64,000 bases of DNA from an uncultured Gammaproteobacteria bacterium (GCA_964465205.1 CAYXJO010000003.1:14693-78692), one strand, 5' to 3'; shown: positions 12,766-40,758, counted from the first letter of the stretch. Notes: generated by a model not told the origin, from the letters alone. Translations and numbers: made by a program.

Positions 12766-14016
12766 TTATTTTAGTGTTGGATACAGAGGAAATTTGGCAG
12801 TGAGTTCTACGACTCGCTTTTTTATTTCCGCTAATTTTTCTTGGTTTTCAAAATTGGAAATAGCCTCGTCGATCCAACTGGCGATGGTGGTCATTTCGGT
12901 CTCTTTCATACCGCGCGTAGTGAGGGCGGGTGTGCCCAGGCGAATGCCGGACGGATCCATAGGGCTACGCGGATCATCAGGGATCATATTTTTGTTCACA
13001 GTAATACCAGCCAAATCAAGCGCGTGTTCGGCTTGTTTGCCAGATACATTTTTGCTACTAAATACATCAATTAGAAGCAGGTGATTATCGGTACCACCAA
13101 AACACAGTTTGTATCCCAATTTGTTGAATTCTGTTTCTAGTGCTTTGGCGTTTAATTTTATTTGTTTGGCATAATCTTTGAATTCTGGCTCAAGCGCTTC
13201 TTTGAAGGCCACCGCTTTGGCAGCGATGTTATTTTCGTGGGGGCCACCTTGGAAACCAGGGAACACGGACTTGTCTATTGCTTTGGCGAATTTTTCTTTG
13301 CACATAATCATGCCGCCGCGCGGACCACGCAAAGTTTTGTGGGTAGTAGTAGTAACGACGTCAAAAATCGGTACTGGATTGTTCATCTGTCCACCGGCTA
13401 TGAGCCCGGCAATATGCGCGATGTCTGCCATAGTAATAGCACCCACCTCGTCGGCGATTTTTTGAATAGCCGCATATTCAATTTCGCGTGAATAAGCGCT
13501 GTAACCTACCAGTATCATTTTGGGCTTGTATTCTAGTGCCATGGCGCGCAAATTGTCGAGATCAACTAGTCCTTGGGCATTAGTTTTGTAACGGATAAAC
13601 TTGAACACTTTGGTCATGTGAGTGACTGGATGCCCGTGGGATAAGTGTCCGCCGTGCGATAAATCCATGCCGAGAATAGTGTCGCCCGGTTCGAGTAAGG
13701 CGAAATACACCGCGATGTTGGCTGGTGCCCCCGAGAGCGGTTGGACGTTTACATGTTCAGCACCAAAAATTTGTTTTACTCTATCAATACACAGCTGTTC
13801 CACTTCGTCGATAAATTCACAGCCGCCATAATATCTTTTGCCTGGATAACCTTCGGAATATTTGTTGGTGAGTATCGATCCCAATGCCTCGAGTACGGCT
13901 GGAGATACAAAATTTTCAGAAGGGATCATTTCCAACCCTTCCTCTTGGCGTTTTTGCTCCCGTTTTATCGAGGCGTAAATATCCGGATCAAAGTCTGTTA
14001 GTTTTTGATTATGCAT
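12766..14016 (-). CDS. glyA: Serine hydroxymethyltransferase
   Basis: [41 protein letters not shown]-lysine region [14 protein letters not shown]. Confidence 0.95.
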
Positions 14017-14045
14017 AGTTTTTTAAATTTATTAGATTAGTGGGT

Positions 14046-14074
14046 ATTTTAGCGCAGGGTATAATTTTTGTCCA
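14046..14074 (-). promoter_or_regulatory. Candidate glyA promoter (minus strand TGGACA-17-TAAAAT)
   Basis: On minus strand: TGGACA, 17-nt spacer, TAAAAT ~25 nt upstream of glyA ATG. Overlaps a TTGACATTGTGTCAA palindrome at 14084-14098. Confidence 0.35.
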
Positions 14075-14118
14075 CACAACGATTTGACATTGTGTCAATA
14101 CTGCATTAATATGTGAAA

Positions 14119-14590
14119 GCTCTTTGTTTTTGATTCGTGTTTTGGGTACTAAACCATCTATCGGGAAGGAATTGGGCCAACCAATGCGACACACCAGAAA
14201 GGGTTTTTCAATCGGCGGCGGCACGTTCGTGAAAAAGAGCGTCTTGTACGCTCTAGAGCGGCGTGGGGTTCTGCGCAACCAGGGGATGCCGTTTCGGCAA
14301 AAGATTGCCATCACTCGGCAGTTGCTGCACGGGAGCGTAGAGGTACCGGTCACCGCTTTTCGGCGGGGCGACGACTATCAACGCCAGTGGCCCGGTACGG
14401 TCTATCTGTACAACCCCACCAAGGGTGTCTGTTTTGCTCTCGTGCCCGACCAGAATCTGGTGCCGGCGTGTTTCACGCCCAGGTTTACCCGGGAATTCGC
14501 CGCCAACTTCACCCCGGACATGCAAAAACAGCGCTGAAAGAAAGGAGACAACTACGCGAGGGGGCCTACGGGCCCTCTTTTATTTTTTGA
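14119..14590. ncRNA. GC-rich (~58% GC) anomalous island of uncertain nature, bounded on the plus strand by a strong sigma-70 promoter (TTGACA 14084-14089, 17 nt, TAATAT 14107-14112) and an intrinsic terminator (GAGGGGGCC-TAC-GGGCCCTC + T-run, 14561-14590). Either a structured ncRNA (weak ordered resemblance to RNase P RNA blocks on the minus strand) or a horizontally acquired basic 117-137-aa protein gene (plus-strand ORF 14124..14537)
   Basis: Abrupt GC jump in an AT-rich genome. Long ORFs open in several frames on both strands. Many local hairpins (CGTGTTTCACG, GAGCGTCTTGTACGCTC, GGTACCGG...CCGGTAC). Minus-strand reading shows GUCCGGGG, GGGUAAACCUGGG, CGUG-AAA-CACG, CCAG, ACGAGAGCAAAAC, GCAGAACCCC in rnpB-like order. 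It lacks the GGAAAG J3/4, a P4 partner and the GGUAAGAGCGCACC block. A minus-strand hairpin+U5 lies at 14231-14254. Confidence 0.35.
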
Positions 14591-14615
14591 TTAATTATAG
14601 TATAGTGTTTGCACT

Positions 14616-16394
14616 ATGGCGATACTTTTGACTATCGAAAATTTAAATAAGGCCTATGGCACTCGCATTATTTTCGAGAACGCGGATTTAGCGGTACAAG
14701 AAAAGCAAAAAATCGGCGTGATTGGTCGTAATGGCGCGGGCAAATCTACTTTATTGCGCATGATAGTGGGCGAAGAAGAATGTGATAGTGGGCAAATTAC
14801 CAAACATGATATTATGAGTTTGGGTTATTTGCGCCAACATGATGATTGCGGTATCGAGGAAACCGTGCAAGATTATTTGGAGCGGGTAACTGGTCGCGAA
14901 TCTTGGCATTGTGCCAAAATTGCCGGCCGGTTTGAAATGAAAGGCGAGATGTTGGATCAAAAGGTCTCTGCGCTTTCCGGTGGGTATCTAATGCGTGTCA
15001 AGCTCGCCATGATGTTGCTCACGGAACCAAATTTATTTTTATTGGATGAGCCGACCAATTATTTGGATGTTCATACTCAATTATTGCTGGAAAAGTTTTT
15101 GCGTAGTTACAATGGTGCGTTTATTATTGTCTCGCACGATCGTGAATTTCTCAAACGCACTTGTACCGAGACGTTGGATGTCGAAAATGGTAAATTGTTT
15201 TTTTATCCTCGTCCTATCGATGAATATTTGGCGTACAAAGAAGAGCGTTTGGCGTTTGCGAAATTGTATAATAAAAATATCGAGCGCGAACAAAAACATT
15301 TGCAAACGTTTGTGGATAGATTTCGCTACAAAGCATCCAAAGCCAAACAAGCGCAAAGTAAAATCAAAGCGATTGAGCGTTTGGAAAAGATTGATATCAG
15401 TAGCCCGCTCGCCAATGTGCGGATAGATATTCCGGGAGTGGAAGCGAAAAAAGGTTGTATAGTGCGTTGTGTGGATGTGGTGATTGGTTATCCCAATAAG
15501 ACCGTGGCGCAGAATATCAATTTGGAAATCGACCGCGGCGAACACGTGGGTATTATTGGCGATAATGGCGAAGGCAAGACCACCTTTCTCAAGACCTTGG
15601 CTGATGCTTTGCCAGTGATATCTGGTGTGGTGAAATGGGCGCCCGACACCCGCATTGCGTATTACGCTCAACACGTGGCCAGTGAACTTAGCCCCACCGA
15701 GAAAGTTTGGGCGTATTTGCGTCGCACAGCCGCGCGCGACATTAACGACGAAGAGGTGTTGCGTATGGCCGGTAATTTTTTGTTCCGCGATCATGAATTG
15801 GAAAAAGATATTGCGGTGCTTTCGGGTGGTGAGCGTTCGCGATTATGTTTGGCCGGCTTACTGCTCACCAAAAGTAATGTGATATTACTTGACGAACCTT
15901 CAAATCATTTGGACTTTGAAACCGTCGAGGCACTGGGTCGTGCTCTCGAAAATTTTGTTGGTACGGTATTTTTTGTCAGTCACAATCGTACTTTTGTAAA
16001 TTCGCTCGCATCGGTGATTATCGAAGTGAAGGGTGGGATGGTGAAAAAATATCCTGGTACATATGAGGATTATGTTTACGCACTCGAACAGTCGGTAGAA
16101 CGCGGGGGTGAAGCTGAATCAAACGGCGTCAAAAATATTGCGGTGGCAATGCCAACGTCGTCTGTGCCGACAAAATCATCCAGCCCCGAAGACTCTGATA
16201 AAGTTACCAAGAAAAAGATCAAAAAGATTGAAGATGAATTGGCTGAATTAGAAAAATTACAACAAATTTTATTTAAGAAGCAACAAAAAAATCCGGCCAA
16301 ATTTTTGCCGGATGATTATAAACGTTTGGGAGAAATTGGTGACGAGATAAAAATCAAAGAAGAGGAGTGGGCACAACTCCACGAAGGGTTATAG
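14616..16394 (+). CDS. ABC-F family ATPase (tandem ABC domains, no TM; EttA/Uup-like translation factor)
   Basis: Two Walker A (GRNGAGKST, GDNGEGKTT), two ABC signatures (LSGGYLMRVKLA, LSGGERSRLCLA), two Walker B (LLLDEPTNYLD, ILLDEPSNHLD), C-terminal K/E-rich coiled coil. Confidence 0.85.
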   Translation: MAILLTIENLNKAYGTRIIFENADLAVQEKQKIGVIGRNGAGKSTLLRMIVGEEECDSGQITKHDIMSLGYLRQHDDCGIEETVQDYLERVTGRESWHCAKIAGRFEMKGEMLDQKVSALSGGYLMRVKLAMMLLTEPNLFLLDEPTNYLDVHTQLLLEKFLRSYNGAFIIVSHDREFLKRTCTETLDVENGKLFFYPRPIDEYLAYKEERLAFAKLYNKNIEREQKHLQTFVDRFRYKASKAKQAQSKIKAIERLEKIDISSPLANVRIDIPGVEAKKGCIVRCVDVVIGYPNKTVAQNINLEIDRGEHVGIIGDNGEGKTTFLKTLADALPVISGVVKWAPDTRIAYYAQHVASELSPTEKVWAYLRRTAARDINDEEVLRMAGNFLFRDHELEKDIAVLSGGERSRLCLAGLLLTKSNVILLDEPSNHLDFETVEALGRALENFVGTVFFVSHNRTFVNSLASVIIEVKGGMVKKYPGTYEDYVYALEQSVERGGEAESNGVKNIAVAMPTSSVPTKSSSPEDSDKVTKKKIKKIEDELAELEKLQQILFKKQQKNPAKFLPDDYKRLGEIGDEIKIKEEEWAQLHEGL

Positions 16395-17978
16395 GCTTTT
16401 TACCATATAGCCGTTTTCGAGTCGGTATCCCATTTTTTGGTAATAACCACGTACACCCACGCCAGATATCACGGCGATTTTTTTTATTTTATTTTTTACA
16501 CAAATACTTTCGGCTTTTTTGAGTAAAGCTTTTCCCATGCCGGTGTGCTGCACTTCGCCGGTGCCGGCAATCGGAATCATCTGGCCATAGGTGTGCAGTT
16601 CGCGGATAAATGCCGGATAAATAGCTTGAATACTTTTTGGGTTCAAGCGCAAACGACAAAAAGCGAACACGATTTGGCGCTTGGTATCTTCGATACTCAA
16701 AAAGTGTTCAATCCCATCGGAGGCGCTGTATTTATCATCAAATAATTTTAATTTTATTTTTTTCGGATCAAAATTTTGATGACCGGCTTCACGACAGCGC
16801 AGGCAATGGCATTTCAATTTCTCCGCCGTCATTTGAGTCTGAATGGTTTGACGTAAATTGGTCACCAGATTGCCGGCTTGGATGTGGTGAGAGGGGATAT
16901 CGCGAATGAGGCGTGAAATACGCACATAGCGCGGCACTGTGGTTTTGAATTTTTTTAATACGTCAATGAGATTTTTATCGGAGTAGGGTTGGTATTTACC
17001 GGCACGGAGCCAATCGTACAGTTCGGAATTTTTTACCACTGTGCAAGGATAAATTTTGATCATATCCGGACGATAGGCAGAATTCGAAAAAATTTCTTGC
17101 ATCATTTTTAGATCTTTGGCCGGAGTGCTGCCAGGAAGTTGGGGCATGAGGTGAAAATCCACTTTGAAGCCGTAATTTTTGAGTAGTTCAGTGGCCCGTG
17201 TAACTGTCGCGGCGTCGTGTCCACGTTTTATAGTTTTCAAAATTTTGTTATCGATAGTTTGGACGCCAAGCTCAAGGCGGGTGCAACCAAGTGCGCGCAT
17301 GACCAGAATATTTTTTTCATTGATGTAGTCCGGACGGGTTTCGAGCGTGAGTCCGATGATACGATGGCGCGCATTTTCGTTTTTCTTTTGGGCCGCCAGT
17401 AGTTTCTTTTTTAGTGTGTCGATTTTTTCATTCGGTTTGGTTTGGGCGCGCGACAAATTACATGCTTCAAAGCAGCGTAAGATAAACCAATATTGGTAGG
17501 TGAGGGGATAAAAATTCCAGGTGCCACCTTTGATAATCAGTTCGATTTTATCGGTCGGGTGGCCGTTTTGGGCCAGTGTTTGCAGGCGTCGTAGCGTCTG
17601 CTCGTAGGGGTCAAATTTGAGCGCTAGGGCACGTGCGGCGGCTGGCTCGTCGGATAGGTAACTTTTAGGCATTCGGGCCTCTGTAGGGCAATATACGCAG
17701 TTTCCAGGGCATCCATAGGGCTTGGTGAGGTTGGTGATAATAGCCACTCCCGAGAGAGTGCGGACGGCCCGCTTAGTAAGGGATTTTTCCAGTGCTGGCA
17801 TGGGTTTTATCTTGCCGGATTTTACTAATTTATGGTATGCTTTGAGCAGGTCAGATTTGGCAATATCGCGGTCGAATTTTTGCCCACGCAAAATATCGCG
17901 ACGGATAGTGTCCAGGTCGCGTTTGGGGTTTTTGATACAAGCAAAAATAATTTGTTCAGCAATATGAATCATAAACAA
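16389..17978 (-). CDS. elp3: Elp3-family protein: radical SAM domain fused to C-terminal GNAT acetyltransferase (tRNA wobble uridine cm5U-type modification enzyme)
   Basis: Radical-SAM motif YGCPGNCVYCP. ~530 aa. C-terminal GNAT core QHTGMGKALLKKAE. Characteristic Elp3 segment DKIELIIKGGTWNFYP. TTG at 17978 or ATG at 17972. Confidence 0.8.
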   Translation of the reverse strand: MFMIHIAEQIIFACIKNPKRDLDTIRRDILRGQKFDRDIAKSDLLKAYHKLVKSGKIKPMPALEKSLTKRAVRTLSGVAIITNLTKPYGCPGNCVYCPTEARMPKSYLSDEPAAARALALKFDPYEQTLRRLQTLAQNGHPTDKIELIIKGGTWNFYPLTYQYWFILRCFEACNLSRAQTKPNEKIDTLKKKLLAAQKKNENARHRIIGLTLETRPDYINEKNILVMRALGCTRLELGVQTIDNKILKTIKRGHDAATVTRATELLKNYGFKVDFHLMPQLPGSTPAKDLKMMQEIFSNSAYRPDMIKIYPCTVVKNSELYDWLRAGKYQPYSDKNLIDVLKKFKTTVPRYVRISRLIRDIPSHHIQAGNLVTNLRQTIQTQMTAEKLKCHCLRCREAGHQNFDPKKIKLKLFDDKYSASDGIEHFLSIEDTKRQIVFAFCRLRLNPKSIQAIYPAFIRELHTYGQMIPIAGTGEVQHTGMGKALLKKAESICVKNKIKKIAVISGVGVRGYYQKMGYRLENGYMVKSL

Positions 17979-18020
17979 GCTCTAGCCATTATACGCAAAA
18001 CACGGCAAAATTACAATGTT

Positions 18021-18689
18021 ATGGCTCGGGAGTGGGACATTAGCCGCGGCCGACCATCGGGGGTGAAATTGTCGGCTTTGAAAAGAATAAAATCCAGCAA
18101 TCGGATTTTGGATTTGGGATGCGGTAATGCTTTTATGATGCCGTTTGTTTTGGAACGCGGGGCTACATATTTTGGGATAGATATTTCGAGTGCGCTTATC
18201 AAGGTCGCGCGTAAAAAATTTGCCAAAGAAATAAAATCCGGTGTGGCGGAATTACGCGTAGGTGAGGCGACTAAATTGCCGTACAAAAATAATTTTTTTG
18301 ACGGTGCGATTAGTTTTGCAGTGATGCATCATATTCCGTCGGAAAAATTGCGATTGAAATTTTTGCGGGAATTGCGGCGCGTGATGAAACCAGATGCGTG
18401 GGCGATGGTTATCAATTGGAATTTGCGTAATGAGTGGTCAGACAAAAGATTTGGGATTTCCGAACAATTAAAAAATCTCCAAAAGGGGACTGATAGGGGC
18501 GATGTGGTCGTGCCGTGGAAAGCGACGGCAGGAGAACAAGTTGAGAGATATATTCACGTTTTTGAAAAAAAAGAATTATTGGATTTGGCACGTGCGGCCG
18601 GATTCAAATCTATACGTGCGGAATTTTATCGGCGTGATGGTGGAAGAGAGAAGAATGGGGAGGAGTTGGTTTTAATTGTAAAAAAATAA
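18021..18689 (+). CDS. Trm9/ALKBH8-like class I SAM-dependent tRNA (carboxymethyluridine) methyltransferase
   Basis: LDLGCGNA SAM motif. FDGAISFAVMHHIPSEKLRLKFLRELRRVMKPDAWAMVINWN matches the Trm9 FD.AISIAV.HH....RR...E..RVL.PGG..LI..WA block. DVVVPW and RYIHVF match Trm9 DVFVPW / RYYHLY. Start could be 17964 (would overlap the elp3 start). Confidence 0.7.
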   Translation: MAREWDISRGRPSGVKLSALKRIKSSNRILDLGCGNAFMMPFVLERGATYFGIDISSALIKVARKKFAKEIKSGVAELRVGEATKLPYKNNFFDGAISFAVMHHIPSEKLRLKFLRELRRVMKPDAWAMVINWNLRNEWSDKRFGISEQLKNLQKGTDRGDVVVPWKATAGEQVERYIHVFEKKELLDLARAAGFKSIRAEFYRRDGGREKNGEELVLIVKK

Positions 18690-18713
18690 CCGCCCTCATA
18701 GTATAATAATTTT

Positions 18714-18812
18714 CTGGCGGCCAGACTTGTGCCTCTGGCACTACGCCCCGCTTCGGCGGGGTGCGATGGCCGCGGGCGAAAATTATTATCTATTTCGGGC
18801 GCTTTTTTTGTA
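18714..18812 (+). ncRNA. Candidate small structured RNA: GC-rich nested hairpins (GGCGGCCA...CCCCGC-UUCG-GCGGGG...UGGCCGCG) after a TATAAT box (18702-18707), ending at T7 run inside the palindrome TTTTTTTGTACAAAAAAA (18804-18821)
   Basis: Perfect 6-bp stem with UUCG tetraloop nested in an 8-bp outer stem. No ORF. No convincing -35. Identity unknown. Confidence 0.25.
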
Positions 18813-19046
18813 CAAAAAAACTCGCCAGAGGCCGCGCGAAGTGCGATGTGGCGAGTGATCGGTTGGCGATAAGAGGACTAGCTCTTTGTTTTTTGTTTTG
18901 CGTTTTCTTCCTCGATTTCTTTTTTTCTTTCTCTGCGACACTTTAGGTAGAGTTGTGCCGACACCATGCCTGCGAAAAAACAAATCAAGAATCCCCAGTC
19001 CATGTGTGTATTCCTCCCTGTGATAGGTATTGGGTCTTTGTGACTG

Positions 19047-19355
19047 TTAACGAACTAACGTGGCCAGAAAGACCAGGAACATCTCCACCGTCCACATGCC
19101 GACGATGATTCGCATCACCAGCCCTTTGCGACGGGACGGTAGAGTGGTAATGTATGCCACCATATCAACCAGCCCTAGGACGAGCCATGTCCAACGCTCG
19201 GATTGGAATCCGACGAATACCTCTGTCGGTCCGAACCAGACCGCATAGAGGGTTTTGAGAAAGTATAGAGGCGCGGCCATCGCGATGAACCCAAGAATGA
19301 ACTCGCCTCGCCTGGTCGCCATGATCTTCTCGACCCAAACCGTAAAACGCTCCAT
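19047..19355 (-). CDS. Small hypothetical membrane protein (3 predicted TM), GC-anomalous (~52% GC), probably horizontally acquired
   Basis: 102-aa ORF with hydrophobic segments FILGFIAMAAPLYF, WTWLVLGLVDMVAYI, MWTVEMFLVFLATL. Embedded in a 0.7-kb GC-rich island. Confidence 0.45.
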   Translation of the reverse strand: MERFTVWVEKIMATRRGEFILGFIAMAAPLYFLKTLYAVWFGPTEVFVGFQSERWTWLVLGLVDMVAYITTLPSRRKGLVMRIIVGMWTVEMFLVFLATLVR

Positions 19356-19384
19356 CCCTTCCTCCTTCGTTTCTGTGATTTGCT

Positions 19385-19484
19385 AAAACAAGATACATAC
19401 AATTTTGTTACCTTACGAGCCCGCATTAATTTGATTATTAATATTCGGGCGAGCTGGGTAATAAAATTGTATGTATCTTGTTTA
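19385..19484. repeat. Palindromic element copy A: perfect 21-bp inverted repeat (AAACAAGATACATACAATTTT) flanking a conserved ~55-nt hairpin core (inverted orientation relative to copies B/C); terminator of the GT4 gene
   Basis: Arms 19386-19406 / 19463-19483. Reverse-complemented core CCCAGCTCGCCCGAATATTAAT...ATTAATGCGGGCTCGTAAGG aligns with cores at 22262 and 61070. Confidence 0.6.
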
Positions 19485-20904: not shown

Positions 20905-20978
20905 GGGTGTTTAGCTCAGTTGGTTAGAGCATCGCGTTTACATCGCGAGGGTCGAGGGTTCGAGCCCCCCAACACCCA
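20905..20978 (+). tRNA. tRNA-Val (anticodon TAC)
   Basis: Cloverleaf. Acceptor GGGTGTT/AACACCC. D-arm AGCTCAGTTGGTTAGAGC. Anticodon stem TCGCG/CGCGA with loop TTTACAT. T-arm GAGGG-TTCGAGC-CCCCC (one A-C mismatch). CCA not encoded. Confidence 0.88.
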
Positions 20979-20983
20979 CAAAA

Positions 20984-31661: not shown

Positions 31662-34157
31662 ATGTGGTCAAGGAGGAAAAATATTTTTCAAATTTTTTGG
31701 TTAGCAATTTTAGCAGGCTCGGCTTGGATTATTCCGGGCCGAGTTTTGGCTTATGATACCAATGTCGCCCACCCAAATATTGCCGAACTGGCAGCTCAAA
31801 TATATAATGAACGATTTCCAAATCAACAGTTGAGTCTGGCGGATATGGAAAATATTAAGCTCGGAGCGCGGCTGGAAGATGTGCCTACTCGGTGGTATCA
31901 GCATTTCTATGACCCCATACACGGCCGCGGTATTTGGTTCAATGACAACAAACAAACCGCCTTGAGCTGGGCCACTGATCCATTTGCTCAAGTGAATTTT
32001 TCATTGGGAGATAATAGTTGGCAAAGAGCCATTAGTGATTGGCAAAAAGGGGATAGGGCACTAGCTATGCAAGAATTGGGTCACACCATTCATCTAATCT
32101 CTGATATGGCGGTGCCGGCACACACACGCGACGATATTCATCCGGCCGGCGATTCATATGAACAGTATGTGAAAAACAATTGGTCGAGCGCGGTTGCGGG
32201 TTTGCGTTATGACTTCCGAAGTTTGAATAGCTTAAATACCGCTTTTTATGCTTTGGCCAAATATTCCAATGGTAACTTTTATAGTGATGATACGATTGAG
32301 CATTGGAATTATAAAATAATTAATATCTCTGGTCATGACAGAAAATATTTTAATAAAAGAAATTATTTGTTCGCCAAAACTGCCGACGGTCATTATTTGT
32401 ATGGTTTTGAAAATTTGATTTGGACGGCTAGCATTAAAGATGTTAGGTATGACGAGATTCTCAACAGCTATGCCTCCCGCCTTATCCCACAAGCTGTGGG
32501 TTATAGTGCCGGAATGATAGATTTATTTTTTCGAGAAGCCACCAAAAAACAAACAGAAAAACTACCTTGGTTGCGCTCCAATTTATCTGGTGTAGTAGAT
32601 ACCGCCGGCGGTGCGGCTCTTACTGCGGCCGAAGGGGCCAAGGATTGGCTTGTCGGCTCCAATGTGTGGGGAGAGGGTGTGCAACAAATTGGCGAAGATG
32701 CACTACGTCAAGTGGATATTACCATGACTGAAAAGGCCCAAATAGCGCGAGGCGAAATTCCACCCGCTACGCCGCCCATATCCGATTCGCCTATAGCAGC
32801 CACAGATTCTGTTTCTACTCCCACGCCATCAAACAGGCCTGCTGTAACTACCACCACCATTGTAGCCACTCCTATTACTTCGACTCCAATATATACTGGC
32901 GGTGGCAGTGCGTATGGCGGTGGCAATGTGCCTGTTCCCGAATCTGAGCCAACCTCTACAATACCTACCTCCACACCACCCACCGATCCCCCCACTTCTA
33001 CGCCGATTACTACCTCTACTCCTAGCCCGACCTCTACCCCTGAAGTGCCCACACCCACCTCTACCCCCACTTCTACGCCAGAGACTCCTACCACAACCCC
33101 AGAAACCCCTACCAGCACCCCAGGCACTCCTACTACCACTCCAGACGATACACCACCTGCCATGCCCACAATTATACTCGCTACACCAGACGCTAGCCGT
33201 CCGATAGTGCAAATTTCAGTCACTTCCACGGACGCTTCGTCTTCGCCGGTCGCATTTGATATTGTTTATACCACTGCACTGTCCCCACTAGATACCGATT
33301 GGAAGCCATTTATAGTCAGTAGTACCGCCACCGTACACAATTTCACTGCTCGGCGCGGATTGATTTATCAATTTCGCGCTCGTGCTATTGATCAAGTCGG
33401 CAATGTTTCAGATTTTTCCAAAATTGCGAGTACCACCTTTGATCAAATTAGTCTAAATGGCACGCAAAGCGAATCCGAACGTGTTTTGACTGCCGAAAAT
33501 AGTCCGTATTTAATAAACGGTAATCAGTGTTATATTATTCCGGCTGGCACCAAACTTACCATTGAAGCGGGGGTGGAAATCAAGATTGGCAAATATCTTT
33601 GTATAATGGTGAATGGTATTTTGGATGCCCAGGGTGATAGTGATGCGCATATTACTTTCTCTCAGCTTAACCCGGGTGAATATTGGGCGCAGATATTTTT
33701 GAATTCCGCTACCGCAACTTTTAATTATGCTGATATTACGGGTGGCGATACAGGTGGGTTATTTGTTTGGAAGCGGGGATTGGTATTTGCAGATAATAAT
33801 TCCTATTTGGAATTAAACAATTCTACTGTTGACGACTTGTATGAAATGGCCGGTGCCGCGGTTGGTGCCAAAGATTCAGTGGTCAAAATACGTGATAGTG
33901 TTTTGGCGGACACCGGCATATCTTCCAATTGTGGTAATAACGTTTGTAATCACGGTATCCGAGCTGGTGGCGGAACATTATATTTGGATAATGTGCTGCT
34001 TCGCAATGTGGTATATGGTATACGCGCCGGCTTACCCGGGTACCAGTCGTATCCTGTGGTATATTCAAACAACTTTTCCAGCATTATGGGCGAGAATATC
34101 GGAGTTTTATTTATGCCGGATAATGAGTATTTTATCCGCACTTCTACTCCTGTTTGA
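31662..34157 (+). CDS. Secreted multidomain protein: N-terminal zinc-dependent phospholipase C / P1-nuclease-like domain, long Thr/Pro/Ser-rich linker, FN3-like segment and C-terminal right-handed beta-helix-like region
   Basis: Signal peptide. WYQHFYDP and ELGHTIHLISDMAVPAHTRDD resemble the HFYDP and L..H..D...P.H zinc-ligand motifs of Bacillus PLC. (TP)n linker at aa ~367-505. NNSYLELNNSTV / GGDTGGLF beta-helix-like repeats. Confidence 0.5.
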   Translation: MWSRRKNIFQIFWLAILAGSAWIIPGRVLAYDTNVAHPNIAELAAQIYNERFPNQQLSLADMENIKLGARLEDVPTRWYQHFYDPIHGRGIWFNDNKQTALSWATDPFAQVNFSLGDNSWQRAISDWQKGDRALAMQELGHTIHLISDMAVPAHTRDDIHPAGDSYEQYVKNNWSSAVAGLRYDFRSLNSLNTAFYALAKYSNGNFYSDDTIEHWNYKIINISGHDRKYFNKRNYLFAKTADGHYLYGFENLIWTASIKDVRYDEILNSYASRLIPQAVGYSAGMIDLFFREATKKQTEKLPWLRSNLSGVVDTAGGAALTAAEGAKDWLVGSNVWGEGVQQIGEDALRQVDITMTEKAQIARGEIPPATPPISDSPIAATDSVSTPTPSNRPAVTTTTIVATPITSTPIYTGGGSAYGGGNVPVPESEPTSTIPTSTPPTDPPTSTPITTSTPSPTSTPEVPTPTSTPTSTPETPTTTPETPTSTPGTPTTTPDDTPPAMPTIILATPDASRPIVQISVTSTDASSSPVAFDIVYTTALSPLDTDWKPFIVSSTATVHNFTARRGLIYQFRARAIDQVGNVSDFSKIASTTFDQISLNGTQSESERVLTAENSPYLINGNQCYIIPAGTKLTIEAGVEIKIGKYLCIMVNGILDAQGDSDAHITFSQLNPGEYWAQIFLNSATATFNYADITGGDTGGLFVWKRGLVFADNNSYLELNNSTVDDLYEMAGAAVGAKDSVVKIRDSVLADTGISSNCGNNVCNHGIRAGGGTLYLDNVLLRNVVYGIRAGLPGYQSYPVVYSNNFSSIMGENIGVLFMPDNEYFIRTSTPV
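32760..33180 (+). repeat. Low-complexity Thr/Pro/Ser-rich coding repeat (TSTP/TPET units) within the PLC-like gene; generates spurious antisense ORFs
   Basis: Translation TSTPITTSTPSPTSTPEVPTPTSTPTSTPETPTTTPETPTSTPGTPTTTP. Locally GC-rich. Confidence 0.7.
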
Positions 34158-34163
34158 AGTGTT

Positions 34164-34192
34164 TGACACCCAAGTCTATTTTCGGTAATATA
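34164..34192 (+). promoter_or_regulatory. sigma-70 promoter (TTGACA-17-TAATAT) at head of the glycan island
   Basis: TTGACA 34164-34169, 17-nt spacer, TAATAT 34187-34192. Followed by two perfect palindromes (34228-34250, 34263-34293) in the leader. Confidence 0.5.
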
Positions 34193-34308
34193 TAGAGGCA
34201 AAAAATTAGTAAAATTTAGTATTTTTATATGGCATTTTTAATGCCATATATTCTCATTCGTTCAATAATGATTAAACACATTTAATCATTATTTCACTCA
34301 TTACGAAT

Positions 34309-36393
34309 ATGCGCAAAACCCTCGAACAGGTGGTAAAAATTTTAATTTACGCCACTTTTTTTGTACCACTAATTGTGGTACCGTCGTCGTTTATTTTTCC
34401 GTTTATTGTACCGAAAATTCTAATGTTTAGATCGCTGGTGGAAATTATGTTGGGGGCTTATGTCCTGCTACTAATTATCAATTGGCAAGAATACAAGCCG
34501 CGATTTACCGCGCTCAACTTGACTTTGGCCGCATTTTTACTCAGTTTTGCGCTTTCGACTTTTTTTGGGGTTGATCCGTATCATAGTTTTTGGGATAATC
34601 ACGAACGTATGTTGGGGTTGTTTACCATTATTCACTGTGTGATATATTATTTCATTTGTACCGCCATGTTTCGCACTTGGGCCGATTGGAAATGGGCGTT
34701 GCGCGGGTTTCTCTTGGCCGGTGCGGCCGTGATGTTTGTGGCTTTTATGCAAACCCAGAATCCCAATCTTTTATTGGGTCAGGGATCGTCGCGTACTGCT
34801 AGTACGTTGGGCAACCCAATTTATGTGGGTGGCTATGGGTTGTTTTTGACATTTGTAGCGTTTTTGTTGGCCATACGCGAGAAAAATAATGTCTGGCGAG
34901 CAGTAGAAATAGTTTTGGGACTGTTGGCATTCTTGGCGATTTTTTGGAGTGGCACGCGTGGTTCGCTATTGGGATTTGTGGCGGGTGCGGCGGTAGCGGT
35001 ATTGGGTTATATAGTAGTGCTCAAAGAACACAAAAAAATTCGTTGGAGTCTGATAGGCATTGCGATTTTGGGAGTAGTAGCGATTGGTTTATTATATGGA
35101 TTTCGCAAAACCGAATTTGTTACCAATTTGCCGGCAGTGGGGCGTACGGTCAACACTTCTTTGGCCGATGTGCAGGCCAGTCCGCGTTGGATTGCTTGGA
35201 CGATTGCAATCCAGAGTTGGAAAGATATGCCGATTTTTGGTTGGGGTCCGAATAATTTTTTCTATGCATTCAATGATCACTATAATCCGCGCTCGTTGGA
35301 TTTTGGATATGGCGAAACTTGGTTTGATAACGCCCACAATATTATTGTAAATACCTTGGCGGTGCAGGGGACATTTGGTATTCTCACTTATTTGGCTGTT
35401 TTTGTCATCGGAGTGTTATCGCTCATCTTAGCCTGGCGTAAATTTGGACTTAATTTCCATATTGCGGTAGTTGGTTCGGCGTTTTTGGTAGCACACTTAG
35501 TGGGCAATATTACTGTGTTTGAAAATCCAACATCATATTTGTATTTCATGTTTTGGCTGGCATTTCTAAATAGTGTGGCGAATCCGCGTGAACAAAAAAA
35601 CGCGGAAGTAGAGGACAAAACCAAAAAAGTAGTGGCTAAATCCGCAGCGCCAGATCGCAAGATTGGTGCCGGGGCGATCTCCGGGGTAGGGGTGGTAGTA
35701 ATGATTTTTGTGTTTGTGTTTAATATCCAACCGGCGCGAGCTAATATGATGACATTGGACGCGATTCGTTATCTATCTCAAGACGTGATTTTGGCCGTAC
35801 CAGCGATGAAAACCGCTCTGGAGTTCAATTCTCCGCATATTGATGATATTCGAGCAGATATTGGCCGTACCGCGGCCCAGACATTGGGAGCGGCATATCA
35901 GAAATTAGGCAAAGATCGTAGTAATGAGATACTGCAGATCGCTTATGATAATTTAAAGAAAAATTTAATTTTGCATCCTTTGGATATTCGCAATCAGCTG
36001 ACTTTGGCGCAACTCGCGCAACTTGGCGCAGTGATTAACCAGAATATTAATTTTATCTTGGATGCAGAGAAATTTTTGGATGATGCCCAGGTCAAATCTC
36101 CACGTCGCCAGCAGGTAGCTTATGCTTTGGCCGGAGTGAAAATGCAATTAGGTAAAAATGCCGAAGCGTTTAAAATTTTAGAACAGACCATTACCGACAA
36201 TCCGCGCGTTGCCGAGAGTTATTGGCGGCTAGCTTATGCATATAAGGTGTTGGGCAATCAGGTAAAAGCCGTGGAGGTTCTTAATTTGGCGAACAAAAAC
36301 GGCGTGGTATTTGGCGAACAGGATCAAGGGATAGTGTCTCAGATACTTGCACCCACGCCCAGTTCTTCTGCGGCGGTGAAGATCAATAAGTAA
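34309..36393 (+). CDS. O-antigen ligase/polymerase-like (Wzy_C) polytopic membrane protein with C-terminal TPR repeats
   Basis: ~12 TM N-terminal domain (FWSGTRGSLLGF Wzy_C-like loop). C-terminal soluble TPR-like helices (AYALAGVKMQLGKNAEAFKILEQTITDNPRVAESYWRLAYAYKVLGN). Confidence 0.65.
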   Translation: MRKTLEQVVKILIYATFFVPLIVVPSSFIFPFIVPKILMFRSLVEIMLGAYVLLLIINWQEYKPRFTALNLTLAAFLLSFALSTFFGVDPYHSFWDNHERMLGLFTIIHCVIYYFICTAMFRTWADWKWALRGFLLAGAAVMFVAFMQTQNPNLLLGQGSSRTASTLGNPIYVGGYGLFLTFVAFLLAIREKNNVWRAVEIVLGLLAFLAIFWSGTRGSLLGFVAGAAVAVLGYIVVLKEHKKIRWSLIGIAILGVVAIGLLYGFRKTEFVTNLPAVGRTVNTSLADVQASPRWIAWTIAIQSWKDMPIFGWGPNNFFYAFNDHYNPRSLDFGYGETWFDNAHNIIVNTLAVQGTFGILTYLAVFVIGVLSLILAWRKFGLNFHIAVVGSAFLVAHLVGNITVFENPTSYLYFMFWLAFLNSVANPREQKNAEVEDKTKKVVAKSAAPDRKIGAGAISGVGVVVMIFVFVFNIQPARANMMTLDAIRYLSQDVILAVPAMKTALEFNSPHIDDIRADIGRTAAQTLGAAYQKLGKDRSNEILQIAYDNLKKNLILHPLDIRNQLTLAQLAQLGAVINQNINFILDAEKFLDDAQVKSPRRQQVAYALAGVKMQLGKNAEAFKILEQTITDNPRVAESYWRLAYAYKVLGNQVKAVEVLNLANKNGVVFGEQDQGIVSQILAPTPSSSAAVKINK

Positions 36394-36409
36394 ATTGTAG
36401 CACCTACAT

Positions 36410-37126
36410 ATGTTTTTTTCAGTCGTAATCCCGGTGTACAACGAGGAGCGACGTATACCCAGAAGCATTGATCAGATTTTTGATTTTTTTGCCGGTTTTA
36501 CTGACCACCGAATAGAAATAATTTTTGTGAACGACGGATCGTCTGATCAAACTGCCAAGGTATTACAAGATTACCAAACGAAATATAAATTCAAAGTTAT
36601 TGATTACACAGTGAATCGCGGCAAGGGTTACGCTGTAAAACAAGGGGCGTTGGCCGCTGGTGGTGATTGGATAATATTTTTTGATATTGATTTGGCTACT
36701 CCCTTGAATGAGTTCAATCATTTATTGCAGTTTATGAAATCAGACGACCGACTAATTATTGGTAGTCGTCGTTTGGGTGAATCGAAAATTGAAAAAAGTG
36801 AATCAAGTATCCGAGTGTTTTTGGGTCAGGGTTTCACCAAGTTGTCCAATATTTTGGTGCCCGGCATTACCGATTTCACTTGTGGTTTCAAATGTTTTTC
36901 TCGGCAAGCGGCGCAAACTATTTTTCCTTTGGCGCGAATTGATCGTTGGGGTTTTGACACGGAATTATTGTATATAGCCAAACTAAAGAAGTTGTCTATA
37001 CGTCAAATGCCGGTAGCTTGGGCACATGACAATGATTCACGAGTTAATGTAATTAAAGCCGTGATCAGTTCGTTTCGCGAATTGTGTCAGATGAAGTGGA
37101 ATCAAATCAAGGGTTTGTATAAATAA
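36410..37126 (+). CDS. GT2 glycosyltransferase, dolichol/polyprenol-phosphate sugar synthase (DPM1/GtrB-like)
   Basis: VVIPVYNEERRI, FVNDGSSDQT (DxD region), 238 aa soluble GT-A. Confidence 0.8.
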   Translation: MFFSVVIPVYNEERRIPRSIDQIFDFFAGFTDHRIEIIFVNDGSSDQTAKVLQDYQTKYKFKVIDYTVNRGKGYAVKQGALAAGGDWIIFFDIDLATPLNEFNHLLQFMKSDDRLIIGSRRLGESKIEKSESSIRVFLGQGFTKLSNILVPGITDFTCGFKCFSRQAAQTIFPLARIDRWGFDTELLYIAKLKKLSIRQMPVAWAHDNDSRVNVIKAVISSFRELCQMKWNQIKGLYK

Positions 37127-37132
37127 GTTTTT

Positions 37133-38650
37133 ATGGAAAGATTATCATTAAAACAAAAAATGATTTATACTGGTTTGGCGGGGTGGATGGTTGCTCTATG
37201 TTGGACTGTGGTTTGTTTCTGGACTACCCCAGCCAATAATTGTAGTATTTTTTCTCGTTTGAATTTGAGCCATCATCCAATATCGGTATTTTTTTTGCCG
37301 GTATTTTTTATTTTGTTGAGTTTTAGTTCTTATTACGCCTATGTTTTATTTGCCTCTGGTAAAACGAATGAATATAACGATAGCACGCTTGCAAAGAAAC
37401 TTGTTAACGTATTTCCGTTTTTAGTTATTGTTCTGGCTTTAATCATTCCAACGTTTAATAATTACGATTTTAGTTTTTATTTCAATTCCGGCAAGTTTAT
37501 GGCCACAAATAATCTGCATATTTATAACAGCAGTTGGCCAACTGTAAATTATTTCTTTTGTCCATTATTTGACGCCAATGTAGTATCGGGTTATATGTAT
37601 GGTCCGTTAATTGGCTTATTACTGTATGGTTTGTTCTTGACCGCCGGAGGAAAATTTTTATTTTTCTATATTATTTGGAAACTCCTGATGTTAGCTGGTT
37701 TGATTTTTTGTATTTTTTTAACAAAGCGAATCATCGAGATTGTTCACCCTGGTTATTTTACTGCAAAAAAAGATTCCTTATTATGGCTTTGGATTTCTCA
37801 GCCTCTAATTATGTGGGAATGGGTTGCTAGCGGACATTTTGAATCTGTTTGGTTGCCGTTTTTGCTCGCGGCGGTATTTTTTTCATTGCGTAGAAAGTGG
37901 TGGTTGGTATTTGTGTTTCTTACCATAGGCGCATGGTTAAAATTTTTACCGATCTTGATAGCACCATGGTTCGTTCTTTGGTGGTGGCAAGACACTAACA
38001 AAGCAAATTACAAGACAAATGTAATTCATGTGTTGATAGCGCTCGCTTGTTCGTTTTTAATAACAATCATGTCTTGGGCTCCGTTTTGGGAGGGGGTTTC
38101 AACGATCCATCCGATACAGATGCAGACGAAATGGGCAGTTAACAGTTTATTCTCTTCTACTTATTATTCAATACGACCATTATTCGATAAGATCTTTCTA
38201 ATCAACCCCCACTGGTACTTGACCAGACTGCTCCATTTTTCACTGCTTGTATTGGTGGTATATTTATTGTACCCATTAATTAAGAAAGCCTTGGCAGTTT
38301 TGATTCGTAAATCGTTTTTAAGTCCAACAGATTATATCAACGCCATTTTTATTACGTTCTTTGTTTATTTATCTGTTTGGCAAAAATCTTTTTGGCCATG
38401 GTATGTTTCGTGGCTGCTGCCTTTTGGTTTTATTTTGTTGACTGAGATTAGGTCGAAAGCATTCTTTCGTTTGTTGGTTTGGTTGAGCATATGCCCGTTA
38501 TATTTATATGTTGTTTGGATGGTGGGTGGTATTCCGTTTCCGTCAGAAAAGCTTTGGCTCCAATGGCTTTTGATGTTATTGAGTTGGCTGGTTCCATTTA
38601 TTTTTTTCTTGAAATGGAGAAAAGAGGGCTACAATCTTAATAATTTATAA
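37133..38650 (+). CDS. Polytopic membrane protein, probable GT-C fold glycosyltransferase (partner of upstream GT2)
   Basis: 505 aa, >10 TM, aromatic-rich. Immediately downstream of DPM1-like GT2. Confidence 0.45.
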   Translation: MERLSLKQKMIYTGLAGWMVALCWTVVCFWTTPANNCSIFSRLNLSHHPISVFFLPVFFILLSFSSYYAYVLFASGKTNEYNDSTLAKKLVNVFPFLVIVLALIIPTFNNYDFSFYFNSGKFMATNNLHIYNSSWPTVNYFFCPLFDANVVSGYMYGPLIGLLLYGLFLTAGGKFLFFYIIWKLLMLAGLIFCIFLTKRIIEIVHPGYFTAKKDSLLWLWISQPLIMWEWVASGHFESVWLPFLLAAVFFSLRRKWWLVFVFLTIGAWLKFLPILIAPWFVLWWWQDTNKANYKTNVIHVLIALACSFLITIMSWAPFWEGVSTIHPIQMQTKWAVNSLFSSTYYSIRPLFDKIFLINPHWYLTRLLHFSLLVLVVYLLYPLIKKALAVLIRKSFLSPTDYINAIFITFFVYLSVWQKSFWPWYVSWLLPFGFILLTEIRSKAFFRLLVWLSICPLYLYVVWMVGGIPFPSEKLWLQWLLMLLSWLVPFIFFLKWRKEGYNLNNL

Positions 38651-38655
38651 GTTTT

Positions 38656-39459
38656 ATGATAACTAGTGATGTTATCATTAATTTACGTAAGAGGTGTTTG
38701 TTTGTGATTAGACAAATTTATCGTTTGTTGATAATTTTTCCGTTTTTAATAGTTGTGCAAATAATTCACATATTGACTAATTATTTCTGTAAAAAAAATA
38801 CAACAGAGCCTTTAGTTGACAATTGTTTTGTGGTATCATCGGTGATTTTCCCCCACCCGCGCAGATTGACATATGCGTCTCGGCGCTCAGTTTTTACCCC
38901 CGATCAACGAATTGCACAAACGATTGAAACCGTACTCTCTATTAGGAAATATGCTTCAAGTGCCAAAATAATTTTAGTGGAGGGGGGTATGGTAGGGGAC
39001 TTGCCAAAAACTTTACTGTCTTTGGTTGATGAATACATCTATGTTGGCGGTAAATCGTTGGTGAGGTGGGCTTGTGATAGTTGGTTCAAGAGTTTAGGCG
39101 AGGCCATGATGCTATTGTCCGCTGCCAAACAGATTGAGAAAATCCGTGCCAAATTATATTTTAAAATTAGCGGACGTTATGTTTTGAATGAGCAATTCAA
39201 TCCATCTGATTATGTTATTGAAAAATTTAGTTTTCATTCCATTAGGTCAGATTTTTTTTCTACCAGGTTATATAGTTTTCCCGGTGAACTGTTTAGTATC
39301 TGGACAGTCGCCTTATTGAAAGGTTTGCCATATAATTTGATGGATTATCCAATTGAGCATACTTTGTACAAATTTATACCAAAAAAATTTATTAGTGCGG
39401 TAGCCACTTTGGGGATAGGTGGTTTAGACGCCACCGGAGGGTTAGGGGTGCGTGAATAA
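38656..39459 (+). CDS. Hypothetical protein (N-terminal TM), unknown function, inside glycan island
   Basis: 267-aa ORF, no recognisable motif. Confidence 0.4.
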   Translation: MITSDVIINLRKRCLFVIRQIYRLLIIFPFLIVVQIIHILTNYFCKKNTTEPLVDNCFVVSSVIFPHPRRLTYASRRSVFTPDQRIAQTIETVLSIRKYASSAKIILVEGGMVGDLPKTLLSLVDEYIYVGGKSLVRWACDSWFKSLGEAMMLLSAAKQIEKIRAKLYFKISGRYVLNEQFNPSDYVIEKFSFHSIRSDFFSTRLYSFPGELFSIWTVALLKGLPYNLMDYPIEHTLYKFIPKKFISAVATLGIGGLDATGGLGVRE

Positions 39460-39462
39460 CAT

Positions 39463-40758
39463 ATGTTTGATCATATCAAAAAAATATTATCCAAGAAGAC
39501 ATTGCATGAGTTTGGTTTTGTATATTTTGGAGCATTGATAAATGGTGTTTCTTTGTTTGCGCTTAATGCTATTTTGGCTCGTCATCTCACTACTGACTTA
39601 TTTGGTATTTTTACATTGGCAGTTTTGGTATTAAGCACCGTGGCGGAGTTGTCTGACTTTGGTCTAAATGCCGGGTTGTTGCGTTTTGTACCATTTTATT
39701 TAGCTACCGAACAGTTGGAAAAAATGAAACAATTGGTGAAAACGGTTTGGGTTTGGCGGGTTAGTTTGTCTTGGGCGCTATCGATATTTTGTCTGCTCGC
39801 ATCTTCGTTTTTGGCAAAATATGTTTTTGGGCGTGCTGTTATTGCACCATATATTGCGTTTGCTTCACTGGGAATTGGTGGAGTGATTCTATTGGGATTC
39901 GTGTCTACTTTTTTGCACGCCAAACAGGATTTTTTTCGTAGCGCCACCGCACAGACTCTCAAAGGAACACTGCGTTTAGTTATGGTCATCGCGCTGGTGT
40001 TGCTCAAAGTTGACAATCTATTTGCGTATTTGGCTGTGTATACTTTTGTGCCTTGGATTTTATTTTTTATTTATTATAAATTTTTACCAGAAAATTTTCG
40101 TAAAATCGAGATTGACATTGATTCAAAAAAACAATTACATACTCAACTGGCCCAATTTAGTACCTGGCTAACCATTTCATCGTTGTTGTCAATAGTTGCC
40201 AGCCGAGTTGATCAGGCCATGATTAGCAATTTGCTGGGCTTACAAGAAGTTGCAATATTTGTAGTTGCTTATCAATTGATACAATTTTATCCGTTAATAT
40301 ATAATTCTATCTCTTCGGTAATGATGCCCAAAGTGAGCGCGTTGCACAACAAAGTGGATTTGACCAATACTGTCTTTAAGTTGGCAAAGTGGGTATTATT
40401 GGTAGTATTATTATTGGCGATTGTAATATATCCTTCCCAATATATAATCATATTATTGTTTGGCACCAAATATGCCGCCGCAATGCCGGTATATTTAATT
40501 TTGGCTTATAGCTTGTTGCTAAATATCATATCTATTCCTTTCTCCCTTATTATTACAGTATTTAATAAAACTAATTTAGTGGCAATGTCTGGAGTTTTAC
40601 AAATTATTATTAATGTTGTTTTTAATTTCATATTGTTGCCGAGATTTGGTTTGATGGGCGCGGCCTACACCTTCGGCATAGGTTTGTTGGTCGGTCTGTT
40701 GTACAATGTTGTTTGCGCACTTTTTTTATTCAAGAAGCGCGATTTTAGGTTGGCATAA
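39463..40758 (+). CDS. Wzx-like oligosaccharide flippase (polysaccharide biosynthesis protein, MOP superfamily)
   Basis: 431 aa, ~12-14 TM, typical Polysacc_synt topology and size. Confidence 0.7.
   Translation: MFDHIKKILSKKTLHEFGFVYFGALINGVSLFALNAILARHLTTDLFGIFTLAVLVLSTVAELSDFGLNAGLLRFVPFYLATEQLEKMKQLVKTVWVWRVSLSWALSIFCLLASSFLAKYVFGRAVIAPYIAFASLGIGGVILLGFVSTFLHAKQDFFRSATAQTLKGTLRLVMVIALVLLKVDNLFAYLAVYTFVPWILFFIYYKFLPENFRKIEIDIDSKKQLHTQLAQFSTWLTISSLLSIVASRVDQAMISNLLGLQEVAIFVVAYQLIQFYPLIYNSISSVMMPKVSALHNKVDLTNTVFKLAKWVLLVVLLLAIVIYPSQYIIILLFGTKYAAAMPVYLILAYSLLLNIISIPFSLIITVFNKTNLVAMSGVLQIIINVVFNFILLPRFGLMGAAYTFGIGLLVGLLYNVVCALFLFKKRDFRLA

Follow-up and report, generated by a model that had tools for sequence, protein, structure and literature searches.

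A divergent gene pair for Elp3 and a Trm9-like methyltransferase predicts a two-gene Elongator-type tRNA wobble modification pathway in bacteria

The 64,000-nucleotide stretch of DNA analysed here (GCA_964465205.1, CAYXJO010000003.1:14693-78692; called the window below) comes from a genome labelled as an uncultured Gammaproteobacteria bacterium. It carries two divergent genes with overlapping starts, one for an Elp3 with a radical S-adenosylmethionine (SAM) domain and a GNAT domain and one for a Trm9-like class I methyltransferase. We consider it likely that Elp3 makes 5-carboxymethyluridine at the wobble position of tRNA (cm5U34) and that the methyltransferase then makes 5-methoxycarbonylmethyluridine (mcm5U34), the two genes forming a self-contained Elongator-type pathway. 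Wobble modifications of this class (C5-modified uridines, xm5U34) tune the decoding of split codon boxes. In the division described so far, bacteria make them with MnmE/MnmG, and archaea and eukaryotes with Elp3 or Elongator together with Trm9.

The two genes and their products

Both open reading frames (ORFs) lie exactly where the original prediction for this stretch had placed them, and the start codons, which it expected within about 50 bp of each other or overlapping, do overlap: the two ATGs at 17964 and 17972 share 9 nt. The features of the pair are as follows.

16389..17972, minus strand: Elp3 gene, 527 aa from ATG 17972; radical-SAM and GNAT/KAT domains; predicted tRNA U34 carboxymethyl (cm5U) synthase
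17964..18689, plus strand: Trm9-like class I SAM-dependent methyltransferase gene, 241 aa; predicted cm5U34 to mcm5U34 carboxyl methyltransferase
17964..17972, no strand: overlap of the divergent start codons, 9 nt, ATGAATCAT; zero intergenic DNA
17688..17711, minus strand: radical-SAM [4Fe-4S] cysteine motif CPGNCVYC; C88, C92 and C95 in the 527-aa numbering
16794..16811, minus strand: CxCxxC zinc cysteines in the linker between the Elp3 domains; CHCLRC, residue 388
16425..16718, minus strand: GNAT/KAT (acetyl-CoA) domain of Elp3, inside the full-length TIGR01211 match
18108..18128, plus strand: SAM-binding motif I, LDLGCGN; D50 corresponds to ScTrm9 D72
18327..18332, plus strand: HH dyad, H122/H123, corresponding to ScTrm9 H115/H116; H116 is essential for catalysis (PMC4678810)
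18510..18563, plus strand: VPW (W185) and RYIHVF (R195, I197), corresponding to ScTrm9 W168, R241 and Y243

The exact 527-aa Elp3 product from ATG 17972 is the NCBI gene call and is present in an NCBI-derived collection. An in-frame TTG at 17978 would extend the ORF to 16389..17978 (minus strand, 529 aa, two residues more), and the overlap of the starts would then be 15 nt. The methyltransferase frame is open over 17832..18689 (plus strand), and an alignment of 27 family members gives ATG 17964 as the family-conserved start. The resulting 241-aa protein has the N-terminus MNHKQALAIIRK. The public NCBI-derived call for this gene (P0001) has 193 aa and matches at 99% identity over 80% of the query. 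It omits the first 48 residues (window 17964-18107), among them R28, the counterpart of the essential ScTrm9 R29. This shorter call is presumably a start-codon error, because the true start overlaps that of Elp3.

Elp3 matches the TIGR01211 ELP3 model at 537 bits against a cutoff of 350 (E 4e-161), with residues 18-529 of the 529-aa form aligned to model positions 13-522 of 522. The Pfam search returned Radical_SAM and Radical_SAM_C together with a GNAT match, and Acetyltransf_10 and Acetyltransf_1 score just under their cutoffs. The best solved match in the PDB is Methanocaldococcus infernus Elp3 (397 bits), followed by Dehalococcoides mccartyi Elp3 (355 bits) and by the mouse, human and yeast proteins (281-300 bits). 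When the protein is aligned by phmmer to D. mccartyi Elp3 (5l7j), C88, C92 and C95 fall on C23, C27 and C30 with identical CX3CX2C spacing, and the counterparts of K77, K193, E386 and Y441, which are reported to form the lining of the acetyl-CoA pocket (PMC6367351), are all kept. The CHCLRC motif aligns to CrCirC of the D. mccartyi and M. infernus enzymes, where the zinc cysteines have been described (PMC6367351), and the QHxGxG loop is present as QHTGMG at 16533-16550 (residue 475). Relative to D. mccartyi Elp3 the protein has an N-terminal extension of 66 aa with 15 Lys or Arg residues. This extension resembles the archaeal one, which has been tied to substrate and tRNA recognition (PMC6367351, PMC7663514). 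At the sequence level these matches establish the family identity of Elp3, and all mapped catalytic residues are kept. The original prediction of a full-length Elp3 with radical SAM and C-terminal GNAT domains is thereby borne out, and the cysteine triad is retained on alignment.

The methyltransferase has generic domain matches only in Pfam, Methyltransf_11 (E 3e-20) and Methyltransf_25, and falls below the cutoff of every NCBIfam model (best 52 bits, cutoffs 155-460). The UbiE/MenG models are no exception, with TIGR01934 at 48 bits against 158 and the PRK00216 variants at 30-47 against 216-378. When a profile of the family was searched against the PDB, Yarrowia lipolytica Trm9 (5cm2_Z) came first at 85.4 bits, narrowly ahead of 3sm3 (84.0) and 1ve3 (83.0). 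Its alignment spans the whole domain, including DVxVPW and RYxH. With the single methyltransferase sequence as query 5cm2_Z ranks third, and the fold searches return many natural-product methyltransferases at similar scores. The active-site residues discriminate the Trm9 type from the near-tied structures in these alignments: 3sm3 and 1ve3, both uncharacterised archaeal methyltransferases, do not have the essential second histidine, and 3sm3 also has no VPW. All 81 family members align to nearly the whole Y. lipolytica Trm9 fragment, at about 25-32% identity among the matches listed; the window protein is about 27% identical to it. An AlphaFold2 model of the protein has a mean predicted local distance difference test score (pLDDT) of 92.3 and a Rossmann-like strand order. 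Several family members carry the name TRM9 (JGI), and others are called 'UbiE' or 'class I SAM-dependent methyltransferase' in several sources.

Eight ScTrm9 residues, R29, D72, H116, W145, W168, R241, Y243 and N271, are needed in vivo and in vitro (Létoquart et al., PMC4678810). Their counterparts were located with two alignments, one by HMMER to 5cm2_Z and one by MAFFT with 80 species-level relatives.

ScTrm9 R29: R28, kept in 80/80 relatives
ScTrm9 D72: D50, kept in 80/80 relatives
ScTrm9 H116: H123, kept in 78/80 relatives
ScTrm9 W145: W152, kept in 80/80 relatives
ScTrm9 W168: W185, W in 66/80 relatives, F or Y in 13 more
ScTrm9 R241: R195, kept in 75/80 relatives
ScTrm9 Y243: I197, variable, Y in 28/80 relatives
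ScTrm9 N271: N231, kept in 65/80 relatives; mapped by motif position only

Thus seven of the eight essential residues are present in the methyltransferase, and Y243 alone is replaced, by Ile. The Trm9 block named in the original prediction (FFDGAISFAVMHHIPSEKLRLKFLRELRRVMKPDAWAMVINW), DVVVPW and RYIHVF are all found in the translation. With these signature residues kept and every NCBIfam score under its cutoff, the case that would have refuted the original prediction, a match to UbiE or other generic members with no Trm9 signature, did not arise.

Pairing across genomes and the start junction

The role of the methyltransferase has its strongest evidence in the conserved pairing with Elp3. We scanned GTDB with one genome per species, seeding the scan with methyltransferase patterns alone, and obtained 80 loci; Elp3 was detected in their flanks, within 8 kb, by tblastn with the window Elp3. 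It lies near the methyltransferase in 68 of the 80 loci, head to head in 64 and on the same strand in four, so that the genomic coupling suggested by the original prediction is found again in 64-68 of 80 species-level genomes. Elp3 is also the sole conserved neighbour. After clustering of ORFs of at least 90 aa it occurs as a full ORF in 60 of the 80 loci and the next cluster in 12, and no third conserved gene was found beside the pair. Close relatives of the methyltransferase (54-76% identity) have the same pair within the syntenic order FtsZ, NrdR, pyruvate kinase, SHMT (serine hydroxymethyltransferase), Elp3, methyltransferase and GT4. In a metagenome scan seeded with Elp3, the methyltransferase was present in five of seven testable loci (eight loci in total, too few for a rate). 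Chance can be ruled out because of the E-values of the profile matches and the conserved synteny.

The loci, cited here by number, come from genomes with diverse labels. Among the Patescibacteria these are Saccharibacteria, Paceibacterota, Portnoy-, Kerfeld-, Kuenen-, Moran-, Komeili- and Gracilibacteria; other bacterial labels are Chloroflexota (Anaerolineae) and Fermentibacteria, and the archaeal ones are Pacearchaeota, Woesearchaeota and Crenarchaeota (DPANN/Crenarchaeota). Some metagenome-assembled genomes are labelled Gammaproteobacteria, Bdellovibrionales or Nitrosomonadaceae, labels that are unconfirmed. In the Crenarchaeota-labelled locus L032 Elp3 and the methyltransferase stand in tandem, which matches the Elp3-Trm9 gene cluster noted in Sulfolobus solfataricus in 2008 (PMC2584109).

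Homologues of Elp3 fill at least 7,992 protein clusters at E<=1e-60, all domains of life taken together. The best 120 clusters are at least 56% identical to the window protein, and the named ones among them are labelled Patescibacteria, Magasanikbacteria or Parcubacteria. By these homologue names the window host would be a Patescibacteria-type bacterium. The rarity of bacterial Elp3 expected in the original prediction is not borne out for these lineages. Among uncultivated bacteria Elp3 is plentiful, and there it is nearly always paired with a generically annotated Trm9-like methyltransferase.

The two proteins differ in how far they have diverged in one locus. L089 (contig Ga0265297_10000003, 963 kb) has an Elp3 65-68% identical to that of the window and a methyltransferase only 35% identical, from which it seems that the methyltransferase evolves much faster than Elp3 or that two methyltransferase subfamilies exist. 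The subfamily of the window protein carries KEIKSG as an insertion and NGEELVL at its C-terminus.

At the junction of the pair the spacing varies widely. We surveyed 63 divergent pairs, picking the starts nearest to the alignment-extrapolated N-termini. Overlapping starts were found in 11 pairs and spacers of 0-20 bp in 14, and in nine pairs the ATGs overlap by 2 nt in a shared CATG. In L083-L086 the two starts are at neighbouring bases (6000/6001) with the sequence CATATG and a 0-nt gap. L081 has 79-83% DNA identity to the window, yet its spacer is about 220 bp, against -9 in the window. The start-codon junction is labile.

Where the genes have no spacer, the promoters would be inside the partner gene. 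The junction of the window contains one candidate.

17988..18016, minus strand: sigma-70-like match TTGTAA-17-TATAAT in methyltransferase codons 9-18, oriented toward Elp3; 10/12 consensus matches only

From the end of this match there are 9 nt to TTG 17978 and 15 nt to ATG 17972. As a putative promoter it is placed to drive Elp3, and the leader would then measure about 9 nt at the most. Promoter-like sites are not enriched in the junction region of the window relative to shuffled sequences. Across the loci, a TANNNT hexamer, mostly a perfect TATAAT, recurs at a fixed distance from the starts: of the 34 loci with spacers above 60 bp, 22 have its end exactly 6 nt ahead of the methyltransferase start, and of the 28 abutting loci, 8 have it equally far ahead of the Elp3 start, there within methyltransferase codons 3-5. 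The control rate of this spacing of a -10 hexamer at random ATGs is 1.4%, which makes the enrichment a strong one. In twenty Chloroflexota-type loci it occurs at 36 of 162 large ORFs, of which an estimated 20 or so are the methyltransferase genes, and at about 12% of the remaining ORFs. A -10 box placed 6 nt ahead of the start codon is what one expects for leaderless mRNAs. From this geometry the transcripts of the pair are probably leaderless or nearly so.

Individual loci show the hexamer in several forms. A perfect or nearly perfect TATAAT stands 6 nt upstream of the methyltransferase in loci of the series L041-L080 (Chloroflexota-type, near locus position 8001) and in L002, L003, L006, L007, L010 and L017. 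The loci with a CATG overlap have a TATTCT- or TATCTT-type hexamer 6 nt ahead of the Elp3 ATG.

Surroundings of the pair

The first part of the window is of housekeeping type (YbeY, DagK, FtsA, SHMT, an ABC-F protein); from about 34 kb on it gives way to what looks like a low-GC polysaccharide cluster. Judging by synteny with L083 and L085, the genes upstream of SHMT are probably those for FtsZ, NrdR and pyruvate kinase. No other tRNA-modification genes were seen among the ORFs scanned, which cover part of the window. Next to Elp3, 14001-16396 is a 2.4-kb insertion relative to L081 (79-83% identical), where SHMT directly adjoins Elp3; L083 and L085 have a NUDIX gene in its place. The insertion contains a GC-rich ORF at 14184-14537 (59% GC) with no Pfam or Rfam match, a terminator-like hairpin seen by eye, and an ABC-F-type ATPase gene at 14616-16394, whose stop shares 6 nt with that of Elp3. 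The GC-rich segment 14017-14615 was considered as a non-coding RNA and rejected, with no Rfam match at E<=1 and a fold z-score of -1.4. On the other side of the pair, about 0.8 kb (18688-19478) between the methyltransferase and the GT4 glycosyltransferase is specific to the window and holds a hydrophobic-looking 102-aa ORF (19047-19355, minus strand) without a Pfam match; in L081 the two genes are 17 bp apart.

Further downstream lies a tRNA gene.

20905-20979: tRNA-Val(UAC) gene, 2.2 kb from the methyltransferase

The lineage of the window keeps this gene 1.4-4.5 kb downstream of the methyltransferase. Nine other loci (L002, L004, L005, L006, L010, L012, L014, L018 and L019), mainly with Saccharibacteria labels, instead have a tRNA-Arg(CCG) gene a few to about 480 nt downstream of the methyltransferase and in its orientation; this tRNA has C34 and so is not an Elp3 substrate. 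Both tRNA genes seem to reflect synteny within a lineage and not a functional link. The tRNA-Val(UAC) gene was accordingly rejected as a marker of the substrate, being lineage synteny only, with tRNA-Arg(CCG) at that place in other lineages. The segment 34000-64000 has a GC content of 0.33-0.41 against about 0.44, with all sizeable genes on the plus strand. Three of the five ORFs scanned in 34000-40758 match, to a Wzy_C O-antigen ligase-like protein, a GT2 glycosyltransferase and a Polysacc_synt flippase, and the segment looks like a polysaccharide or cell-envelope cluster.

Predicted pathway and alternatives

In the first step of the proposed pathway, the radical-SAM domain of the stand-alone Elp3 would generate a 5'-deoxyadenosyl radical, which would activate the acetyl group of acetyl-CoA bound to the GNAT domain. 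By homology to characterised archaeal Elp3, the acetyl-derived group would be joined to C5 of U34, giving cm5U34. In the second step the Trm9-like methyltransferase would methyl-esterify the carboxyl group with SAM, giving mcm5U34, as its active-site residues and the gene pairing suggest. With the genes packed head to head and no spacer between them, each promoter would be placed within the first codons of the other gene. Both activities, the tRNA substrates, the independence of Trm112 and the use of the promoters are what we infer from the sequence. Of the two-step pathway like that of archaea and eukaryotes in the original prediction, the gene identities and the pairing stand, and the mcm5U product is drawn from homology and context.

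Several observations weigh against this assignment. The Pfam and NCBIfam libraries contain no Trm9-specific model. At the position of ScTrm9 Y243 the window protein has Ile and the family varies, and the correspondence of N231 to ScTrm9 N271 is by motif position alone. Eight of the 80 loci have no Elp3 in reach with at least 2.5 kb upstream available (four more are untestable), and one of the eight, L001, holds the closest GTDB relative of the window methyltransferase (49% identity). Eukaryotic and archaeal Trm9 need Trm112 (for the archaeal Trm9-Trm112, PMC6144793), and a phmmer search with an Escherichia coli YcaR query, a weak test, detected no Trm112-like ORF in the window or the flanks of 86 loci. 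Direct evidence for xcm5U34 derivatives in bacterial carriers of Elp3 was absent according to a 2020 review (PMC7663514). As for the loci without Elp3 (L001, L015, L020, L046, L049, L061, L063 and L074, over at least 2.5-8 kb upstream), all eight retain R28, D50, H122, H123, W152, R195 and N231. Because these residues are retained, Elp3 may be encoded elsewhere in the eight genomes.

The methyltransferase could also work with Elp3 in another reaction, for instance by modifying some other intermediate derived from Elp3 or a neighbouring position, and the end nucleoside would then not be mcm5U. The missing Y243 counterpart, the Phe or Tyr at W185 in 13 relatives and the identity of only 25-32% to Y. 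lipolytica Trm9 would fit such a divergence, as would a Trm112 not found nearby in the weak search of the flanks. Side-chain chemistry can indeed vary, since Haloferax volcanii without Trm9 turns cm5U rapidly into other products (PMC6144793). However, the residues with proposed roles in positioning the carboxylate and the uracil (PMC4678810), namely R28, H122/H123, W152, R195 and N231, are almost invariably kept, and we regard another reaction as rather unlikely.

An accidental neighbour of Elp3, a generic UbiE/Methyltransf_11-type enzyme with a small molecule or a lipid as its substrate, would account for the generic Pfam and NCBIfam domains, for homologues named 'UbiE' or 'class I SAM-dependent methyltransferase', and for the natural-product methyltransferases that score similarly in fold searches. 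It is very improbable given that the UbiE, MenG and other NCBIfam models reach at most 52 bits against cutoffs of at least 155, and that 64 of the 80 species-level genomes, drawn from several phyla and from bacteria as well as archaea, have Elp3 head to head with the gene, where other neighbours are not conserved. E. coli CmoM/SmtA methyl-esterifies the 5-oxyacetic acid derivative of the wobble uridine (cmo5U34) to its methyl ester, mcmo5U34. A functional analogue of CmoM, acting in the oxyacetic-acid pathway and not on the Elp3 product, would perform the same chemistry on the U34 side chain, a carboxyl methyl esterification, and tRNA-Val(UAC), whose gene lies 2.2 kb away, is a typical cmo5U substrate in Proteobacteria. 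Yet the CmoM-type and all other NCBIfam models stay below cutoff, the conserved partner is Elp3, no CmoA/CmoB-like cluster is among the clustered neighbours of the 80 loci, and the active-site signature fits Trm9. We give this explanation hardly any weight. The sequential formation of cm5U34 and mcm5U34 by Elp3 and the Trm9-like methyltransferase remains the reading that we prefer.

Among the known systems close to the pair is the archaeal one, Elp3 with Trm9(-Trm112), in which mcm5U is made by Trm9-Trm112 in H. volcanii (PMC6144793). As in archaea, Elp3 is stand-alone without Elp1, 2, 4, 5 and 6, has a long N-terminal extension and zinc cysteines, finds its best solved match in M. infernus Elp3 (397 bits), and is physically clustered with a Trm9-type partner; the same methyltransferase family is found beside Elp3 in the Crenarchaeota-, Pacearchaeota- and Woesearchaeota-labelled loci. 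The window differs in its Patescibacteria-type host, in divergent genes with overlapping starts where the archaeal genes are simply clustered, in Ile for ScTrm9 Y243, and in a Trm112 partner that was not identified in the weak search of the window and the locus flanks. With the eukaryotic Elongator (Elp1-6) and Trm9-Trm112 or ALKBH8-TRMT112 it shares the predicted two-step chemistry, the catalytic residues of Elp3 and seven of eight Trm9 residues, but not the accessory Elongator subunits or the AlkB and RRM domains, and Trm112 was not found near the pair.

Among bacteria, D. mccartyi Elp3 (5L7J) is likewise stand-alone, with identical CX3CX2C spacing and the same K77, K193, E386 and Y441. It differs in having no N-terminal extension of about 66 aa, and weak activity has been reported for it (PMC7663514); a Trm9 partner for it is not mentioned in the accessible literature. 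The bacterial MnmE/MnmG (+ MnmC) pathway to xm5U34 acts on the same C5 of the wobble uridine with the same presumed role in decoding, but through unrelated enzymes that use GTPase, FAD and folate chemistry with glycine or ammonium, compared with radical SAM and acetyl-CoA here. The 2020 review restricts bacterial Elp3 to Dehalococcoides (PMC7663514); a 2026 paper speaks of "numerous bacteria" (PMC13315578). We found no description of a bacterial Trm9 partner or of Elp3 in Patescibacteria in a literature search that left most subscription journals outside. The pathway is known from archaea and eukaryotes, and its predicted occurrence in bacteria would be new; the absence of a detected linked Trm112 and the overlapping divergent starts are possibly distinctive.

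The pair is a clean example of divergent genes with overlapping starts and apparently leaderless promoters, and it yields a testable prediction, mcm5U in bacteria. The family also offers candidate Trm9 enzymes that may act without Trm112. We tentatively suggest, as a possibility with the odds against it, that Patescibacteria and Chloroflexota (Anaerolineae) carry an autonomous, Trm112-independent mcm5U34 module with back-to-back leaderless promoters, which possibly replaces MnmE/MnmG. Mutually embedded leaderless promoters would, if true, explain starts that share CATG, CATATG or ATGAATCAT. If the module itself is real, bacteria would widely use mcm5U-type chemistry at the wobble position, and there would be a natural form of Trm9 that needs no Trm112.

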